From contig BK006936.2 in assembly GCA_000146045.2 (NCBI GenBank), forward strand, positions 416,001 to 480,000: 64,000 bases of DNA, in the 5' to 3' direction. Below the pieces are notes generated by a model. That model was not told the DNA's origin, made no database searches, and saw only the letters and a program-made list of their open reading frames with translations. Shown piece by piece: positions 10,490 through 64,000 of this stretch; positions within the stretch are counted from its first letter, which is position 1; every line of letters starts with the position of its first letter. Source of the stretch: TPA_inf: Saccharomyces (lineage: Eukaryota). Made by a program: the position numbers and the translations under genes.

Positions 10490-11058
10490 AGCGCTAGTTT
10501 TATATATGTTAATGTTCTAAGTTAATTAGTTAGTACTCTTGTCGTGCGCTATGATAAACAAAGGAAGGGGGTGCACAGAACAGCAGTCCTTTAGAGGATA
10601 CTACAGTAGAAAGCTAGAGTCCTGACTTACAACTTGAGCATGCCGTTATGGGCGGCTATTTCATTTCACCTGAACCGTATTAAAATATCATCTTCCTTGC
10701 TGCTACAACCTTCATTGTAGCCGGTTTATAAGATTACCATCATTGTCTACCCCTCTTTAACTTCTCCCGAAAAGCAGAGTTGCCCTTAGCTGTATCCTGT
10801 TCTAGCTGTGCTAAACTGTACGTTCTTATTAAGCCCATCCTCGTCCGCTGGGCTCACCCAGCGCCTTACATACTTTGCGAAAAAGTCGTTTTTCTGCTTG
10901 GTGTTAGGAGCTGTCTCCCATAGTGTAAACTCCCAGTATTGCCTCAACCTCACTTGCTGTACTTTATAGTTGCCGCGCCACCTAAAAAAAAAAACAAAAA
11001 AGACACCACCTAAAAAAACGGGTGAGGGGAATGCACGTGACCCAGGTGCGGGTACCAT
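10333..11058 (-). CDS. YBR090C: Spliced small ORF, join(11058..10874,10516..10333) on minus strand, 122 aa; exon 2 overlaps the NHP6B CDS in a different reading frame
   Basis: Exon 1 runs from the ATG at 11058 to 10874 (61 codons plus 2 nt), ending AA|GTATGT. The 5' splice site GTATGT is at 10873..10868. The branchpoint TACTAAC is at 10535..10529. The 3' splice site TTAG ends at 10517. The joined reading frame continues for 60 codons to a TAA ending at 10333, for 122 aa in total. All signals were read directly from the sequence. Confidence 0.6.
10517..10873 (-). other. Spliceosomal intron (357 nt) with consensus GTATGT...TACTAAC...TAG, ending 27 nt upstream of the NHP6B ATG
   Basis: The consensus yeast splice signals were read on the minus strand. 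The intron lies in the NHP6B 5' leader region and, at the same time, inside the YBR090C coding region. Confidence 0.6.
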
Positions 11059-11697: not shown

Positions 11698-13101
11698 TTA
11701 TTGTTTTAATAGGGTATCGTTGTAGTGAGTAGTATTCCAGTCCCAGTAGAAGGTCAATTCGGTGACGTTACTGACACTGCTGACGTTACAGACCTTTAGG
11801 AAGTCAGTACCAGCTACTCTCTTTTCAGCATAGTCGTAGAAATCATTGATTTCACAAGAGAACCCTGGGCCGGTGGAACAGGTTTCAATTGGAACGACAG
11901 CATCGTTAATGACGTATCTGACGTAGGTGTCGTTAGAACATTGGAATTTTTCGGTGTAGACACGAGCACCTTGAGGAACGTACCAGGACTTATGGAAGGT
12001 GTTGCCCATGAATGGAACGTATTCGGCAGTTAAGTTGTTTTTGTCGTCAATTATACCAGCGGTGGTCAAATAGTTTAGGATATCGGTATCGTGGGTAAAA
12101 CTCAACCAGACTTTTAAGTCTTGAGTTTCACTTTGCTTTAACAACTTCAAAGTAGCGTTAAACAAGTTGGCACCGACGGATCTGATCATATCATAACCTG
12201 GTCCATCCTGGTAAAACGATACCAGGTCCTGGCCGTATGAGTAACGTACCAATTCATCTTCGGTGAAGATATCACAAACATCACTGTAGCCTCTAGCGTT
12301 CAATTCGTATGCACACCATGCAAACAAAGTGTTGGCGTCCTTTGAGGTCAAATTCAAACCCTTGTTTTCTTTGTTTAATCTCTTGGCAATGTCATCCAAG
12401 TATGTGGTATCGTATTTGTCCAAAATGTCATCGTTAGCATCTTCATCCCATCCTGGGCACGCATTACCAGCACTCAAAGTGTTTGCGCCGGCGGACATGG
12501 CTTCACTGACAGTCTGCAAGGAGATGTTGAATTGGTCACCTAAACCATCAATGAAATATTGAGCAGTGTCATGAACCCTTTCAGAACTAGCGGCGAAAAT
12601 TGGGAAACTGGTTTGATTTTCGAACATGTAGCCATATTGCGCTAAAAACTCACGAGCATGTCTCTTAGCATCCATCTCACCAGTGTATGGATTCAAAACA
12701 TTGTCTGAGTTGGCAAAAGTGGTTTCCATTTCCAAATCATCGTCATCACGGATGAAAAACTCGTAATCATCGTTCAAGAATGACAATGAGCCGTTGAATT
12801 GACGTGTGTAATTGCTCAACTTATACCATGTTTTCATGATGGTAGCACCTTTACTGTAAGTTGGGTATCTTTCACCATGTCTGGCAAGCATTTGCAATTG
12901 TTTCATTTCACAACCTTCAGGCAAGTCACGAGAAATACCATAGTCGCCAGGGAAAGAGAAGTATGGCCCGGCACCACCCAGGAATGGGAATATGTCTTCC
13001 TGAGTGCCAATTTTGGCAACATCGGCTAACTCTCCGAGGGGAATTGTACCTGCATTAACTAAAGCAGCGGCTAGAACCGAATAAACAACAGACTTAAACA
13101 T
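11698..13101 (-). CDS. PHO3: Secreted acid phosphatase (histidine acid phosphatase family), constitutive/thiamine-repressible isozyme
   Basis: The 467-aa ORF has a signal peptide (MFKSVVYSVLAAALVNA) and the histidine acid phosphatase motif RHGERYP. It is many times N-glycosylated. It forms a near-identical tandem pair with the downstream ORF. Confidence 0.92.
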   Translation of the reverse strand: MFKSVVYSVLAAALVNAGTIPLGELADVAKIGTQEDIFPFLGGAGPYFSFPGDYGISRDLPEGCEMKQLQMLARHGERYPTYSKGATIMKTWYKLSNYTRQFNGSLSFLNDDYEFFIRDDDDLEMETTFANSDNVLNPYTGEMDAKRHAREFLAQYGYMFENQTSFPIFAASSERVHDTAQYFIDGLGDQFNISLQTVSEAMSAGANTLSAGNACPGWDEDANDDILDKYDTTYLDDIAKRLNKENKGLNLTSKDANTLFAWCAYELNARGYSDVCDIFTEDELVRYSYGQDLVSFYQDGPGYDMIRSVGANLFNATLKLLKQSETQDLKVWLSFTHDTDILNYLTTAGIIDDKNNLTAEYVPFMGNTFHKSWYVPQGARVYTEKFQCSNDTYVRYVINDAVVPIETCSTGPGFSCEINDFYDYAEKRVAGTDFLKVCNVSSVSNVTELTFYWDWNTTHYNDTLLKQ

Positions 13102-13547: not shown

Positions 13548-14951
13548 CTATTGTCTCAATAGACTGGCGTTGTAATGAGTAGTGTTCCAGTCCCAGTAGA
13601 AGGTCAATTCAGTAGAGTTACTGACGCTGCTGACGTTACAGACCTTTAGGAAGTCAGTACCGGCTACTCTCTTTTCAGCATAGTCGTAGAAGTCATTGAT
13701 TTCACAAGAGAACCCTGGACCAGTGGAACAGGTTTCAATTGGAACAACAGCATCGTTAATGACGTATCTGACGTAGGTGTCGTTAGAACATTGGAATTTT
13801 TCGGTGTAGACACGAGCACCTTGAGGAACGTACCAGGATCTGTGGAAAGTGTTGCCCATGAATGGAACGTATTCGGCAGTTAAGTTGTTTTTGTCGTCAA
13901 TTATACCAGCGGTGGTCAAAAAGTTTAGGATATCGGTATCGTGGGTAAAACTCAACCAAACCTTTTGGTCTTGAATCTCACTTTGCTTTAATAATTTGAC
14001 TGAGGCATTGAACAAGTTGGAACCGACAGACTTGATAATGTCGTAACCTGGACCCTCATGGTAATAAGTGTGCAAGTCTTGGTAGTAGGAGTAATGGACT
14101 AATTCATCCTTGGTGAAAATATCACAGACATCACTGTAACCTTTAGCGTTCACTTCAAATGCACACCACGAGAATAAAGTACTAGCGTCAGTTGAGGTCA
14201 AGTTCAAACCCTTGTTTTCCTTGTTCAATCTCTTGGCAATGTCATCCAAGTAGGTTGTGTCGTATTCATTTACAATGTCATCATTGGCATCGTAGTCCCA
14301 AGCAGGACATGAGTTACAAGCACTCAAAGTGTTGGCACCAGCGGATTCAGCTTCACTGACAGTCTGCAAGGTGATGTTGAATTGGTCACCTAAACCATCA
14401 ATGAAATATTGAGCAGTGTCATGACATCTCTTAGAATTAGAGGTAAAAACGGCGAAACTGGTTTGGTTTTCGACCATGTAACCGTATTGAGCCAAGAAGT
14501 CACGAGCATGTCTCTTGGCGTTCATTTCACCAGTGTATGGGTTCAAAACATCGTCCGAGTTGGCAAAAGTGGTTTCCATTTCCAAATCATCGTCATCACG
14601 GATGAAAAACTCGTAATCATCGTTCAAGAATGACAATGAGCCGTTGAATTGACGAGTGTAATTGCTCAACTTATACCATGTACTCTTGATAGTCTTAGCC
14701 AGACTGACAGTAGGGTATCTTTCACCATGTCTACCAACCATTTGCAGTTGCTTCATTTCACAACCTTCAGGCAAATCACGAGAAATACCATAGTCGCCAG
14801 GGAAAGAGTAGTATGGTCCGGCACCACCCAAAAATGGGAAGATATCTTTTTGGGTACCAATCTTGTCGACATCGGCTAGTTTGCCTAAGGGAATGGTACC
14901 TGCATTGGCCAAAGAAGCGGCTAAAATTGAATAAACAACAGATTTAAACAT
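13548..14951 (-). CDS. PHO5: Repressible secreted acid phosphatase (histidine acid phosphatase family)
   Basis: The 467-aa paralogue of PHO3 carries the RHGERYP motif. Its promoter carries Pho4 E-boxes. Confidence 0.92.
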   Translation of the reverse strand: MFKSVVYSILAASLANAGTIPLGKLADVDKIGTQKDIFPFLGGAGPYYSFPGDYGISRDLPEGCEMKQLQMVGRHGERYPTVSLAKTIKSTWYKLSNYTRQFNGSLSFLNDDYEFFIRDDDDLEMETTFANSDDVLNPYTGEMNAKRHARDFLAQYGYMVENQTSFAVFTSNSKRCHDTAQYFIDGLGDQFNITLQTVSEAESAGANTLSACNSCPAWDYDANDDIVNEYDTTYLDDIAKRLNKENKGLNLTSTDASTLFSWCAFEVNAKGYSDVCDIFTKDELVHYSYYQDLHTYYHEGPGYDIIKSVGSNLFNASVKLLKQSEIQDQKVWLSFTHDTDILNFLTTAGIIDDKNNLTAEYVPFMGNTFHRSWYVPQGARVYTEKFQCSNDTYVRYVINDAVVPIETCSTGPGFSCEINDFYDYAEKRVAGTDFLKVCNVSSVSNSTELTFYWDWNTTHYNASLLRQ

Positions 14952-42871: not shown

Positions 42872-44221
42872 ATGTTTTTGGAAATTCCTCGGTGGTTACT
42901 TGCCTTAATAATATTATACCTTTCCATACCGTTAGTGGTTTATTATGTTATACCCTACTTGTTTTATGGCAACAAGTCGACCAAAAAAAGGATCATCATA
43001 TTTGTGCTGGGTGATGTAGGACACTCTCCAAGGATATGCTATCACGCTATAAGTTTCAGTAAGTTAGGTTGGCAAGTCGAGCTATGCGGTTATGTGGAGG
43101 ACACTCTACCCAAAATTATTTCCAGTGATCCAAATATCACCGTCCATCATATGTCAAACTTGAAAAGAAAGGGAGGCGGAACATCAGTTATATTTATGGT
43201 AAAGAAGGTGCTTTTTCAAGTTTTAAGTATTTTCAAATTACTTTGGGAATTGAGAGGAAGCGATTACATACTAGTTCAAAATCCACCGAGCATACCCATT
43301 CTTCCGATTGCTGTGCTATACAAGTTGACCGGTTGTAAACTAATTATTGATTGGCACAATCTAGCATATTCGATATTGCAACTAAAATTTAAAGGAAACT
43401 TTTACCATCCTTTAGTGTTGATATCTTACATGGTAGAGATGATATTCAGCAAATTTGCTGATTATAACTTGACTGTTACTGAAGCAATGAGGAAATATTT
43501 AATTCAAAGCTTTCACTTGAATCCAAAGAGATGTGCTGTTCTCTACGACCGCCCGGCTTCCCAATTTCAACCTTTGGCAGGTGACATTTCTCGTCAAAAA
43601 GCCCTAACTACCAAAGCCTTTATAAAGAATTATATTCGCGATGATTTTGATACAGAAAAAGGCGATAAAATTATTGTGACTTCAACATCATTCACCCCTG
43701 ATGAAGATATTGGTATTTTATTAGGTGCCCTAAAGATTTACGAAAACTCTTATGTCAAATTTGATTCAAGTTTGCCTAAGATCTTGTGTTTTATAACGGG
43801 TAAAGGACCACTAAAGGAGAAATATATGAAGCAAGTAGAAGAATATGACTGGAAGCGCTGTCAAATCGAATTTGTGTGGTTGTCAGCAGAGGATTACCCA
43901 AAGTTATTACAATTATGCGATTACGGAGTTTCCCTGCATACTTCAAGTTCAGGGTTGGACCTGCCAATGAAAATTTTAGATATGTTTGGCTCAGGTCTTC
44001 CTGTTATTGCAATGAACTATCCAGTGCTTGACGAATTAGTACAACACAATGTAAATGGGTTAAAATTTGTTGATAGAAGGGAGCTTCATGAATCTCTGAT
44101 TTTTGCTATGAAAGATGCTGATTTATACCAAAAATTGAAGAAAAATGTAACGCAGGAAGCTGAGAACAGATGGCAATCAAATTGGGAACGAACAATGAGA
44201 GATTTGAAGCTAATTCATTGA
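42872..44221 (+). CDS. ALG1: Chitobiosyldiphosphodolichol beta-1,4-mannosyltransferase (GT1/GT33), 449 aa
   Basis: The supplied ORF starts at a TTG (42863). The first ATG is at 42872 (MFLEIPRWLLALIILY), which gives an N-terminal signal anchor. A glycosyltransferase group-1 C-terminus follows. Confidence 0.88.
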   Translation: MFLEIPRWLLALIILYLSIPLVVYYVIPYLFYGNKSTKKRIIIFVLGDVGHSPRICYHAISFSKLGWQVELCGYVEDTLPKIISSDPNITVHHMSNLKRKGGGTSVIFMVKKVLFQVLSIFKLLWELRGSDYILVQNPPSIPILPIAVLYKLTGCKLIIDWHNLAYSILQLKFKGNFYHPLVLISYMVEMIFSKFADYNLTVTEAMRKYLIQSFHLNPKRCAVLYDRPASQFQPLAGDISRQKALTTKAFIKNYIRDDFDTEKGDKIIVTSTSFTPDEDIGILLGALKIYENSYVKFDSSLPKILCFITGKGPLKEKYMKQVEEYDWKRCQIEFVWLSAEDYPKLLQLCDYGVSLHTSSSGLDLPMKILDMFGSGLPVIAMNYPVLDELVQHNVNGLKFVDRRELHESLIFAMKDADLYQKLKKNVTQEAENRWQSNWERTMRDLKLIH

Positions 44222-45177: not shown

Positions 45178-45873
45178 CTATTTGATGTGGTATTGCTTGG
45201 CCATGAGGATACCTTGAGCTACGTTTTGAACACGTGCATCCAACTTGTAGCCTTGTTGATCCAACTTAACCATTTCATCAGGAAACTTGTGCAACTCAAC
45301 GCTAAAGCATTCGATAAATTCATTATCTTCCAATTGAGTAACTGGTTTTTGGTTTTCAGGTAAACTCATATCAACTTCGACAGTAACCAGACAGAGGTTG
45401 GTGTTTGTGAAACCAGGATCGTTAAAAACTGTTGGGCTTTTAGAAATTATTTTACCACTGTAACCAGTCTCTTCTTTTAATTCTCTTAAGGCAGCAGTGT
45501 CAATATCTTCACCCGCATCTATCAAACCGGCTGGCATCTCAATGCATACGCCCTCAACGGGAGGGCGAAACTGCTTTTGTAGCAAAATTTCATCAGGTTT
45601 TCCATCTTTGTATTTTAGAATGGTTAAGATACCAATGCCGTCTACACCACCGGAACTTCTAGTGGTGCGGACTGCGCTATCCCATTCCCTTTCCTTCCCG
45701 TTGGGATCTTTGTAGATGATTTTTTGTAAACCGATCCACTTGCAGTCAGATGTTTCTTTAACGTGACGGGCTTCAATTATTTTAGCATCTTCTGGTTTAC
45801 CCTTGACGGTGCTCATAGTTCTAAATAGTCTCCTTGAATTGAGGGAAATAACTCTTACGTTTCTCAAAAACAT
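45178..45873 (-). CDS. YSA1: Nudix hydrolase, ADP-ribose pyrophosphatase (231 aa)
   Basis: The Nudix box is GLIDAGEDIDTAALRELKEETGY. Confidence 0.88.
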   Translation of the reverse strand: MFLRNVRVISLNSRRLFRTMSTVKGKPEDAKIIEARHVKETSDCKWIGLQKIIYKDPNGKEREWDSAVRTTRSSGGVDGIGILTILKYKDGKPDEILLQKQFRPPVEGVCIEMPAGLIDAGEDIDTAALRELKEETGYSGKIISKSPTVFNDPGFTNTNLCLVTVEVDMSLPENQKPVTQLEDNEFIECFSVELHKFPDEMVKLDQQGYKLDARVQNVAQGILMAKQYHIK

Positions 45874-46138: not shown

Positions 46139-46578
46139 ATGACTATGGATACTGCGCAATTAAAGAGTCAAATACAACAATATCTTGTAGAATCAGGAAA
46201 CTATGAACTGTATGATAAAATATTATAGGGGTTGTCTTTTTTAAAAAATCTACTTTACTGACTATTCAGATCACCGTCACATTTATTAGAATTTCAAACG
46301 AACTAAAAGCCAGACTACTTCAAGAAGGTTGGGTGGATAAAGTCAAAGATTTGACCAAATCAGAGATGAACATAAATGAATCTACGAACTTTACCCAAAT
46401 TTTATCCACCGTAGAACCCAAAGCATTAGGTATGTGAATATTTTATCACTAAATTTATTGAAAAGAGAACGTTACTAACAGTGGAATTTTTTTTTCTAGA
46501 AATGGTATCGGATTCAACAAGGGAAACCGTTTTAAAGCAAATAAGGGAATTTCTTGAAGAGATTGTAGATACACAATG
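46139..46578 (+). CDS. SUS1: SAGA DUB module / TREX-2 subunit, 96 aa, three exons: join(46139..46209,46290..46429,46500..46578)
   Basis: Exon 1 encodes MTMDTAQLKSQIQQYLVESGNYEL. Intron 1 runs 46210..46289 (80 nt) with a non-canonical 5' splice site GTATGA and branchpoint TACTGAC. Exon 2 is 140 nt. Intron 2 runs 46430..46499 (70 nt) with GTATGT, TACTAAC and CTAG. Exon 3 ends at the TGA at 46576..46578. The reading frame is continuous across both junctions. Confidence 0.85.
46210..46289 (+). other. SUS1 intron 1 (80 nt) with non-consensus 5' splice site GUAUGA and branchpoint UACUGAC (46256..46262)
   Basis: Read directly from the sequence. The frame is restored only with this intron. Confidence 0.8.
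46430..46499 (+). other. SUS1 intron 2 (70 nt), consensus GTATGT / TACTAAC (46473..46479) / TAG
   Basis: Read directly from the sequence. Confidence 0.8.
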
Positions 46579-46869
46579 AAGGATACGAAAATGCACCTTA
46601 ATTCCCAATATTATTACATATGCTCATCGGGAAAACCTTTTAAGCAATAATAGATTTTAAGTATGTAATGATACAAATAATAATATATTTATATACGCAT
46701 ATATTTACATGTGCATATATGAAAAATAACCTAATTCACGTTACCCACCTTTTTTTTTAGCCTTTTCTTTATTTATATATGTATCCACAACATAATGAAT
46801 GAATTGTGAGCTACACAACATTTCTCGTTGATTATAAATTAGTAGATTAATTTTTTGAATGCAAACTTT

Positions 46870-48019
46870 TTAGTCGTCGTAGTTTTCATCTTCTTCCACT
46901 TGCCTTACTACATTTTCTCTTGGAAGTGTGTTCTCCTGTGGGGATTTTTCTTGAGATGTTTGCTCTTCCTCACGCATTTTGGCCTCCTCTTTCACTGTTT
47001 CCATTGTTTCCAAAGTAGGTTTGATTACAGTTATCGTTGTAGCAGCGGTTTCATCTTGTTGTTTTTCAGCATCTCTGGAAGCTGCTGGCTCCGCCTCTTC
47101 AGTAGAAGGTGCAGATGCTTCAGTTGTGCCGTTTTCCTCTTTAGAATGCTGTCTTACTTCGTCTTCTACAGGGCTTGCTTCTGCAGGAACAGTAGCAGTA
47201 GAAAGTTCTATGGTCTCAGCAGTGCTTTGGTCATTTGCTTTTGTTGTTGAACTTTCTGATGATACAGTTGGTTGGACACTAGATGACTCTGGTTCCGTAT
47301 TAAGCGGTTTTGTAGAAGGAGAAACAGAAGCTGCTTTGGTAGCTTCTTCAGCAGGACTAGCTTCCTGTGGAGGTTCCTGTGCGCCAATTACTGAAGGTAT
47401 TGAGTTTGCTTTTACAGGTTTTTCTTCTTGTGAAGTATTATTGGTATTAGACTCCACTACTGCTGGCGATTGGTTGCTCACCTCAGATTTTGCATTTTCT
47501 TCAATGGAAGTAGCAGTATTTACTAATTTGTTGATGTTTGAATTTGGAGAGTTCAACTTTTGCTTCTTTACCTGTGGTTCAGCGTTCGTTATTCCTGTTG
47601 CGGGAGCTTGCGTTGGAATGGCATGGGTTGGTTGACGAGGAGACTTTGTGTTATTCTCTGTGTGGGTGCTACTGGATACGGCGGCATCTACTAAAGTGTG
47701 GATTGCACCTTCCATGTATCTCTTTTGAGGTAAAACGTTCTGTTCCACGTTATGCTGGATTAAAGGTTGGGGAGCTTGGGCTTGAGGCTGGCCTTGAAGT
47801 TGTTGTGGATGTTGAACAGATTGTAGTTGTTGCTGTTGAGGTGGCAGTTGAGAGCTTTGCGGATGTTCCATAGCTTGTGTAGAAAATGGTTGCAGTTGGT
47901 GAGCTTGTATGACTGTTGGCTGTGTGATATATGGTTGCCCTTGTTGAGGATTTAACATTTGCACAGAAACTCCCTTTTGCTGCAGCTGTTGTCTTGGTAG
48001 GGGCTGTAATTGCTGCTGC

Positions 48020-48080
<61 letters not shown>

Positions 48081-49680
48081 GCTGTTGTTGTTGTTGTTGT
48101 TGTGCCTGCGCCTGTGCTTGTGCTTGTGCCTGTGCTTGTGCTTGTGCTTGCGCTTGTGCATGTGCTTGTGCTTGTGCTTGTGCCTGTGCTTGCGCCTGTG
48201 CTTGTGCTTGTGCTTGCGCTTGTGCTTGTGCTTGTGCTTGAGCTTGTGCTTGTGCTTGAGCTTGTGCTTGAGCTTGAGCTTGAGCTTGAGCTTGTAATTG
48301 AGGGGAAGCTCCATTACTGTACATTGTTGCAGAAGAGTTAATAGGCGTTTGTTGAGCAGGATGCTGTTGTTGTACCATTGAAGCAGTAGCATTGGCAGAT
48401 TGGGCTGAAATTCTAGTGTTCAAAGGATTTCCTTGATCATTAGGTTGTAAGGTAGGTTGTAAAATCACAGGAGGTGGGGCAGGAGAGGCATTCGTTGGCG
48501 CACCGTTCGATTTGTTTATATTGCCTGGGTTTTCTAACTGCTTTGTTAAAGCTTCTAATCTTTCTCTTATGTGAACATTATTTACGTCCAGTCTTGCAGC
48601 TTGCTTATACGCATCAAGGGCGTCAGATAATTGGTTGTTACAAGTTTCGTAAAGAGTACCTAGATCGTACCAAACTTCACTAATATAAGGATTTAATCTT
48701 ATGGCTCTTGTGTACGCGTCTAAGGCGTCTCTGTATTGAGAAATTTGGTAATATAAAACACCGATTGAGCACCAAAAGATAGGGTTTCTTGAATCTCTAT
48801 TAACAGCTTGTTGGAAAGCATCATATGCGGCAGTATAATCTGTTCTAATCATATGCACTCTACCGAGATGGTACCATGTAGTGGCATCGGAGGGATCTGC
48901 TTCTAACGACTTTAGAAGATAATCCAATGCCTTTTGAGGGTCATAAAATTGTACGTTACTCATACCGTAAAGACAACCTAATTGTTGTAATACTTTGGCA
49001 TGATGTTGATTTTGAGCCAAGACATGCTCGTAGGCTTCCTTCGCACCTTGCCACTCTCCCATACTCTCCAAAACACTACCCAACTGAAACCATATGTCCC
49101 ACTCCTGCAAGGGAGCAGGAGGTTGAGGGAGAATGTATCTGAAGCATTCCAAAGCTTGAGACCATTTACCCTGATGTTTATAAATAATACCTAGTCTGAA
49201 GTAAATTTCGTTTGCCTTTTCAAAATGAGGGTCCAATTCCAAAACTTTGGCAAAAGCTTCTTCGGCATAGTCGAGCGAACCATATCTGTCATAAAGAATG
49301 CCGATTCCATGCCATAATTTCGGTACGTTGGGATTACTGAGGTGGTAGAGAGCCTGTTGATAGGCATTGTAAGCTCTTTGCAGATCATCCAGCATCAGAT
49401 AACAATGACCTAAAGTAGCCCACACATCTGATAGTTCGGGATTTACCAAAAGTGCTCTTTCATATAATTCTGCAGCTCTTTGGAACATGTCTCTGGAACG
49501 GTACAAGTGAGCCAAAGATGTTAAAGCCTTTGCAGATGAGGGATTGAACTGTAAAGTGGCGTCATATGCCATTGCGGCCCTGTCGCCATCACCAAGGGTT
49601 TCTGCCAAAGAAGCAATGGAGAGCCAAGTTTCCGCAGTTGATTGTGTTAATGGGTCGAGTGGCTGCTGAGGAACTGCTGC

Positions 49681-49713
<33 letters not shown>

Positions 49714-49770
49714 TTGTTGTTGCTGTTGAGCGGGTTGTTCCATTATTGTTTGTTCACCGCCCGGATTCAT
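46870..49770 (-). CDS. CYC8: General transcriptional co-repressor (Tup1 partner), TPR-repeat protein with polyQ and poly(QA) tracts (966 aa)
   Basis: An N-terminal Q16 run precedes 10 TPR repeats. A (QA)n tract of about 32 repeats is followed by a Q30-plus run. The C-terminus is Ser/Thr/Pro-rich. Confidence 0.93.
48011..48294 (-). repeat. In-frame coding microsatellites inside CYC8: (CAA/CAG)n polyglutamine followed by (CAAGCT/CAGGCA)n poly(Gln-Ala)
   Basis: The plus strand shows about 90 nt of (TTG)n followed by about 190 nt of a (GCTTGT/GCCTGT)n dinucleotide-codon repeat. The poly-L, poly-C and HK-repeat ORFs reported on both strands here are frame artefacts of this repeat. Confidence 0.9.
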
Positions 49771-63337: not shown

Positions 63338-64000
63338 ATGTCAGCGTATGTATATACCTTGTAATTTACGTTTCCTTAAATCTTCTTTCTACTAACGTTT
63401 TCATTATTCTATACTCTATGACCAATAAAAACAGACTGTACTTTCAAAATTTACCCAGTAGGCCAGCAAATAAAGAAAATTATACCAGATTACTTCTGAA
63501 ACACATTAATCCCAACAACAAGTATGCCATTAATCCGTCGCTACCCCTTCCCCACAATAAATTACAAATATCATCACAACCGCTGATGTTACTAGATGAT
63601 CAAATGGGCCTTCTTGAAGTTTCTATTTCAAGATCATCAAAGATGACTAACCAAGCATTTTTAACGTTTGTCACTCAAGAAGAAGCAGACCGGTTTCTAG
63701 AAAAATACACGACAACAGCATTAAAAGTTCAAGGTCGTAAAGTGAGAATGGGAAAGGCTCGAACAAATTCGTTATTGGGTCTTTCAATAGAAATGCAAAA
63801 AAAAAAAGGTAATGACGAAACGTACAACCTTGATATAAAGAAGGTGCTTAAAGCAAGGAAACTTAAACGCAAGTTACGTAGTGATGATATATGCGCCAAA
63901 AAGTTCAGGCTTAAAAGGCAAATAAGACGCCTGAAGCATAAGCTGAGATCAAGAAAGGTAGAGGAGGCTGAGATTGATAGGATTGTAAAAGAATTTGAAA
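63338..64000 (+). CDS. MUD1: U1 snRNP protein A (U1A homologue), spliced, 3'-truncated at window edge: join(63338..63345,63435..>64000)
   Basis: Exon 1 is only 8 nt (ATGTCAGC). The 5' splice site GTATGT is at 63346. The branchpoint TACTAAC is at 63390..63396. The 3' splice site ACAG ends at 63434. Exon 2 continues in frame as (S)ALYFQNLPSRPANKENYTRLL. Confidence 0.8.
63346..63434 (+). other. MUD1 intron (89 nt) immediately after an 8-nt first exon
   Basis: GTATGT, TACTAAC and CAG were read directly. The frame is restored across the junction. Confidence 0.8.

Follow-up and report, generated by a model that had tools for sequence, protein, structure and literature searches.

The two-intron gene on the plus strand at 46139-46579 is, with high confidence, SUS1 (YBR111W-A) of Saccharomyces cerevisiae, coding for the 96-amino-acid Sus1/ENY2 subunit, with a weak first intron that acts as a throttle. 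It was found in a stretch of 64,000 nucleotides (the window; position 1 is its first letter). The two introns and the weak signals of intron 1 are real, had been read correctly, and have been described previously. Gene anatomy, protein identity, isoform consequences, conservation of the signals and the predicted hairpin of intron 2 come from the present analysis; retention levels, nonsense-mediated decay (NMD), factor dependence and protein-level effects were taken from the literature.

Exons, introns and protein product of SUS1

Exon 1 (46139-46209) starts with the ATG at 46139 and has a length of 71 nt, which makes 23 full codons and two further nucleotides; joined to exon 2, its translation is that of Sus1 in the PDB. 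Intron 1 (46210-46289, 80 nt), exon 2 (46290-46429, 140 nt), intron 2 (46430-46499, 70 nt) and the coding part of exon 3 (46500-46579, 80 nt including the TGA at 46577-46579) follow on the plus strand. Scripted splicing gave a coding sequence of 71 + 140 + 80 = 291 nt, corresponding to 96 codons and a stop, and reproduced the exons of 71 and 140 nt and the introns of 80 and 70 nt that had been proposed in a preliminary description made from the sequence alone. The third exon was given there as 79 nt with its end at 46578. This is off by one, as the stop codon ends at 46579 and 71 + 140 + 79 = 290 does not yield whole codons.

The signals of intron 1 are weak. Its 5' splice site (46210-46215) reads GTATGA instead of the consensus GTATGT and its branch site (46256-46262, branch A at 46261) reads TACTGAC instead of TACTAAC, so that both deviating signals lie exactly at the positions where they had been reported, 46210 and 46256. 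The normal 3' splice site of intron 1, TAG at 46287-46289, is located 28 nt downstream of the branch A, and a splice-signal scan revealed a cryptic, branch-proximal CAG at 46267-46269, only 8 nt after the branch A. Intron 2 carries the consensus signals GTATGT, TACTAAC (46473-46479) and TAG, with the 3' splice site 21 nt after the branch A. Both introns show the budding-yeast signature of GUAUGN, a UACUAAC-like branch site with its branch A, and a YAG about 10-60 nt downstream.

The earlier assignment of this 96-codon gene to SUS1 was corroborated at the protein level. PDB chain 3fwb_C ('Protein SUS1') is 100% identical to the spliced product over residues 1-96 (E 2e-56), and so are the chains of that name in another 16 PDB entries (17 in total). 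The product fully covers the Pfam profile PF10163 EnY2 (1-83 of 83, E 1.2e-26, 93.3 bits at a curated cutoff of 27 bits), and this match runs across both exon junctions. A database search returned 100%-identical S. cerevisiae proteins named Sus1p or SAGA and TREX-2 component. According to PDB entry names and published abstracts, Sus1 is common to the deubiquitination (DUB) module of SAGA and the TREX-2 mRNA-export complex. Metazoan ENY2 or e(y)2 (PDB 4dhx_B, E 3.7e-09) belongs to the same family and contains the same Pfam domain. In metazoan and ancestral genes a larger number of introns has been reported, and only the yeast gene is regulated through weak signals.

SUS1 was already known from the work of Rodriguez-Navarro, Johnson and co-workers (PMC3201862, PMC3201863). 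Their accounts agree with the present gene, without any difference of substance, in the sizes of exons and introns, in GUAUGA, UACUGAC and UAG, in the consensus signals of intron 2, in the product of 96 amino acids and in the neighbouring genes. The GUAUGA 5' splice site is also given in Table 1 of Cuenca-Bono et al. UACUGAC has been reported in only one S. cerevisiae intron, namely SUS1 intron 1, and its pairing with GUAUGA is likewise unique. RPL7A, RPL7B, TAD3 and AML1 resemble SUS1 in that each carries a pair of short introns, the upstream one having the weaker signals (PMC3201863), but SUS1 is reported to be the only one in which the branch site is non-canonical together with the 5' splice site.

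Splice isoforms and the proposed throttle

Each departure from complete splicing truncates the protein. Retention of intron 1 leads to a stop after 29 amino acids (exon 1 plus six intron-encoded residues; open reading frame 46139-46228) and retention of intron 2 to a stop after 72 amino acids, while skipping of exon 2 shifts the frame and terminates translation after 42. When the cryptic CAG at 46267-46269 is used, the last 20 nt of intron 1 are kept and the product ends after 35 amino acids. The computed products of 29 and 35 amino acids agree exactly with the figures published in PMC3201862 and by Lipinski et al. 2023, respectively. Lipinski et al. 2023 identified position 60 of SUS1 intron 1, which corresponds to this CAG, as a 3' splice site used in fyv6-delta cells; Fyv6 is a splicing factor for the second step, and the choice of the SUS1 3' splice site has been found to depend on it. 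The preliminary description does not contain the cryptic site at 46269.

All evidence on SUS1 expression was collected from published papers, in which the RT-PCR bands were sequenced. Intron 1 is retained in about 10% of wild-type SUS1 transcripts and in more of them under heat stress (PMC3201863); at 37-42 degrees C, unspliced and partially spliced forms were reported to increase and the mRNA to decrease. The RNA retaining intron 1 was identified as an NMD substrate that is stabilised in upf1-delta cells, and skipping of exon 2 was confirmed by sequencing in about 5% of the SUS1 product. It has been published that loss of the cap-binding complex acts chiefly on intron 1, that both introns are affected and skipping increases in the absence of Mud2 or of U2 snRNP components, and that otherwise benign mutations of Msl5 in RNA binding selectively impair the splicing of SUS1. 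When the 5' splice site as well as the branch site was made consensus, significantly more spliced product was obtained, with an equal contribution of each signal. Sus1 protein reached the level obtained from the cDNA with a consensus branch site, with intron 1 removed, or with intron 1 swapped for intron 2 (PMC3201862).

These reports support two expectations that had been derived from the sequence. The proposal that weak signals render expression sensitive to splicing efficiency is borne out by the consensus mutants and the heat response, and the suggested possibility of intron retention and exon-2 skipping by the published frequencies of about 10% and about 5%. All predictions of the preliminary description, including the experiments it proposed, had in fact been published between 2009 and 2024.

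Recognition of intron 1 involves the U1 snRNP with the cap-binding complex, as well as Msl5-Mud2 and, after it, U2. A 5' splice site ending in A instead of U, together with a branch site that has G instead of A just before the branch adenosine, makes this recognition inefficient. The U-to-A exchange at position +6 of the 5' splice site would cost one base pair to U1 and later to U6 snRNA, and A-to-G beside the branch A, at position 5 of the branch site, would weaken recognition by Msl5 and U2. As a consequence of inefficient recognition, part of the SUS1 transcripts keep intron 1, and since the retained intron has a stop six codons in, giving the 29-amino-acid product, these transcripts are removed by nonsense-mediated decay. 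The weak signals very probably form in this way a built-in throttle by which Sus1 output follows splicing capacity and drops under heat stress. Exon-2 skipping and, when second-step factors are defective, use of the cryptic CAG are minor outcomes. Intron 2 has consensus signals, but would sit in a weak hairpin that also tunes splicing.

Folding predictions differed between the two introns. Nothing notable was found for intron 1, the fold of which (MFE -5 kcal/mol, z = +1.65) is less stable than that of shuffled sequences, and its weak splicing is thus left without a structural explanation. For intron 2, a stem-loop was predicted at 46460-46496 on the plus strand (-8.5 kcal/mol, z = -2.03; 6 of 200 shuffles equally stable; MFE fold of 46455-46499). 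This is the hairpin of AbuQattam et al. 2016, which is supported by NMR (PMC4691836). A run of T at 46483-46499 constitutes its 3' arm. Through this run the length of intron 2 differs among S. cerevisiae strains, with 70 nt in the window and 74 nt (L008, 1792-1865) and 73 nt (L009, 1792-1864) in two others, and its length could shift hairpin stability between strains.

A comparable outcome has been described for RPL30 and YRA1 (PMC3201862), where, as in SUS1, retention leads to a premature stop and decay cuts the output. However, these two genes are cited as autoregulatory loops, whereas in SUS1 the sensitivity sits in weak core signals. Autoregulation by the Sus1 protein was not reported in the SUS1 literature examined.

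Conservation of the signals and alternative explanations

SUS1 loci were compared in S. paradoxus, S. mikatae, S. kudriavzevii (two strains), S. uvarum, S. pastorianus (the non-cerevisiae copy), N. castellii, L. thermotolerans, Z. parabailii and two other S. cerevisiae strains. The search for gene models was unbiased and took the intron model whose product best resembled Sus1. A three-exon model with an exon 2 of 140 nt was obtained in every species compared except Z. parabailii, which has one intron, and the intron positions are conserved across all two-intron loci. GTATGA is invariant at the 5' splice site of intron 1 in 11 of 11 two-intron loci, from Saccharomyces to Lachancea. The branch site of intron 1 reads TACTGAC in S. 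cerevisiae, S. paradoxus, S. mikatae, S. uvarum and the non-cerevisiae copy of S. pastorianus, and TACTAAC in both S. kudriavzevii strains, N. castellii and L. thermotolerans. The single intron of Z. parabailii has consensus-type signals, as does, according to published data, the single intron of C. glabrata SUS1. Together, the consensus branch site of S. kudriavzevii and the single-intron relatives indicate that the non-consensus branch site is not indispensable. The comparative signals reproduce the published Table 1 of Cuenca-Bono et al. In a five-species Saccharomyces alignment, invariant columns amounted to 74-78% in the exons, 40-43% in the introns and 9% in the 30-nt 5' flank.

The comparison also touched on gene annotation. 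In S. mikatae (L002, 1495-1503) the first ATG is replaced by ATA, which implies a translation start at the codon equivalent to Met3 and a product of 94 amino acids. In public annotations SUS1 is either cut short or shifted in two assemblies: a protein of 93 amino acids covering 75% of the query is listed for S. paradoxus (L001, 1415-1855) and a partial one of 68 amino acids for S. pastorianus (L011, 601-970). The DNA supports full three-exon models in both, with 96 and 94 amino acids, respectively. Apparently, the shortness of exon 1 or the non-consensus nature of intron 1 misleads automated gene callers.

Tolerated drift might account for the weak signals of intron 1 as well; they would then have no regulatory role, and a slight leak would simply be cleared by NMD. 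The consensus TACTAAC in intron 1 of the two S. kudriavzevii strains, the consensus-type signals in single-intron relatives and the poor conservation of the introns outside their signals (40-43% invariant columns) are compatible with this explanation. It is nevertheless considered unlikely, as GTATGA is invariant in intron 1 of all two-intron species from Saccharomyces to Lachancea and the isoform ratios of SUS1 were reported to respond to temperature. In addition, the phenotypes of sus1-delta cells were reported to be only partly rescued by consensus and intron-less versions. The partial complementation by the cDNA alone, likewise published, could also be understood if retention of intron 1 were productive and served to make a separate 29-amino-acid peptide with a putative function of its own. 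The corresponding open reading frame is present (46139-46228), and a small tagged product of fitting size was detected and found enriched in mud2-delta upf1-delta cells (PMC3201862). However, conservation is poor in the part of intron 1 that supplies the six additional codons, and the retained transcript is an NMD target, which makes such a purpose very unlikely. A throttle built on weak signals remains the preferred interpretation of intron 1.

A permissive scan of both strands of the 64-kb window (GTATG[TAC], NACTRAC, first YAG/AAG) yielded 40 composite splice signals compared with 33 +/- 8 in composition-matched Markov-1 random sequences; this is not above chance, and splice signals alone thus cannot carry the case. 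The coding consequence of SUS1 splicing, by contrast, is far above chance. Between the ATG at 46139 and the TGA ending at 46579, an enumeration of all GT..AG sets gave 264 two-intron and 11 one-intron solutions that keep the frame open, and the former claim that no other junctions restore it was therefore too strong. If GTATG and ACTRAC are required in both introns, two of the two-intron sets are left, namely the annotated one and one using the AG at 46313, which would delete eight residues; protein identity decides for the annotated set. That the main SUS1 product uses other junctions, either the AG at 46313 (88-amino-acid protein) or the CAG at 46269, is hardly conceivable. The former does keep the frame open and pass the signal filter, and the latter is the first YAG past the branch site. 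However, crystallised Sus1 and the orthologous proteins are reproduced only by the junction at 46289, use of 46269 shifts the frame with a stop at 35 amino acids and is seen mainly without Fyv6, and the sequenced RT-PCR products in published work refute both. An intron-like candidate on the minus strand of the window (40611-40131) had no open frame and was treated as chance.

Neighbourhood, the conserved 3' block and implications

Upstream of SUS1 lie a NUDIX gene on the minus strand (45178-45873, 231 amino acids) and, further upstream, a glycosyltransferase gene (42872-44221). Downstream, a convergent gene on the minus strand (46870-49770) encodes a TPR protein of 966 amino acids with long Q and QA runs. 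Repeat arrays at 48020-48295 (plus strand, 28 copies of TGT and 33 of TTGTGC) encode these poly-Q and Q-A runs. The stretch of glycosyltransferase, NUDIX, SUS1 and TPR genes is presumably ALG1, YSA1, SUS1 and CYC8 of S. cerevisiae chromosome II. The adjacency of the NUDIX gene and SUS1 is kept in every orthologous locus compared (eight other species), and the downstream TPR gene in all loci compared except that of N. castellii, where a gene for an SNF2-type helicase is found instead.

Between SUS1 and the convergent TPR/polyQ gene, a conserved intergenic block of 240 nt (46630-46869, strand not assigned) was found. With 65% invariant columns among five Saccharomyces species, compared with 40-43% in the SUS1 introns and 9% in the 5' flank, it is conserved nearly like coding sequence. 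A conserved SUS1 3' UTR of about 300 nt had been noted in PMC3201862, and the block was proposed to have co-evolved with the non-consensus branch site UACUGAC. S. kudriavzevii, with its consensus branch site, carries the block as well (84% over 238 nt), and this co-evolution is therefore not strict. A similarity search did not detect the block at the loci of N. castellii, L. thermotolerans and Z. parabailii. Compensatory pairs were found in none of the 46 and 48 pairs predicted on the two strands, which is a weak test for sequences as much alike as these. The block may be a SUS1 3' UTR element or may instead belong to the convergent CYC8 gene. A role as a candidate cis-element coupling 3'-end formation of SUS1 to the splicing of intron 1, a speculation put forward by the authors in 2011, is rather doubtful.

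Scans of the whole 64-kb window gave no Rfam matches at gathering thresholds and no tRNA genes. A second intron-containing gene was observed on the plus strand (63338-63434), with an ATG at 63338, an 8-nt exon 1 and an 89-nt intron with the consensus signals GTATGT, TACTAAC and CAG, after which the open frame (MSALYFQNLPSRPANKENY...) continues to the window end. This gene is taken to be MUD1, the U1A homologue. On the minus strand, the region 10517-11058 contains a consensus intron of 357 nt (10873-10517) and a spliced open reading frame of 122 amino acids from the ATG at 11058. An HMG-box-like open reading frame starts just downstream of this intron, which may also be part of the 5' leader of the HMG-box-like gene; the region presumably corresponds to YBR090C / NHP6B. 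Two adjacent open reading frames of 467 amino acids each (11698-13101 and 13548-14951, minus strand) are 87% identical without gaps and thus represent a tandem gene duplicate, which is assumed to consist of the acid phosphatase genes PHO3 and PHO5.

The recognition of SUS1 from raw sequence is to be regarded as a sanity check that adds no new biology. The gene itself serves as a standard reporter for splicing-factor defects, such as those of the cap-binding complex, Msl5, Mud2 and Fyv6, and shows, as a textbook case, that gene regulation by alternative splicing is possible in budding yeast even with its streamlined splicing machinery.
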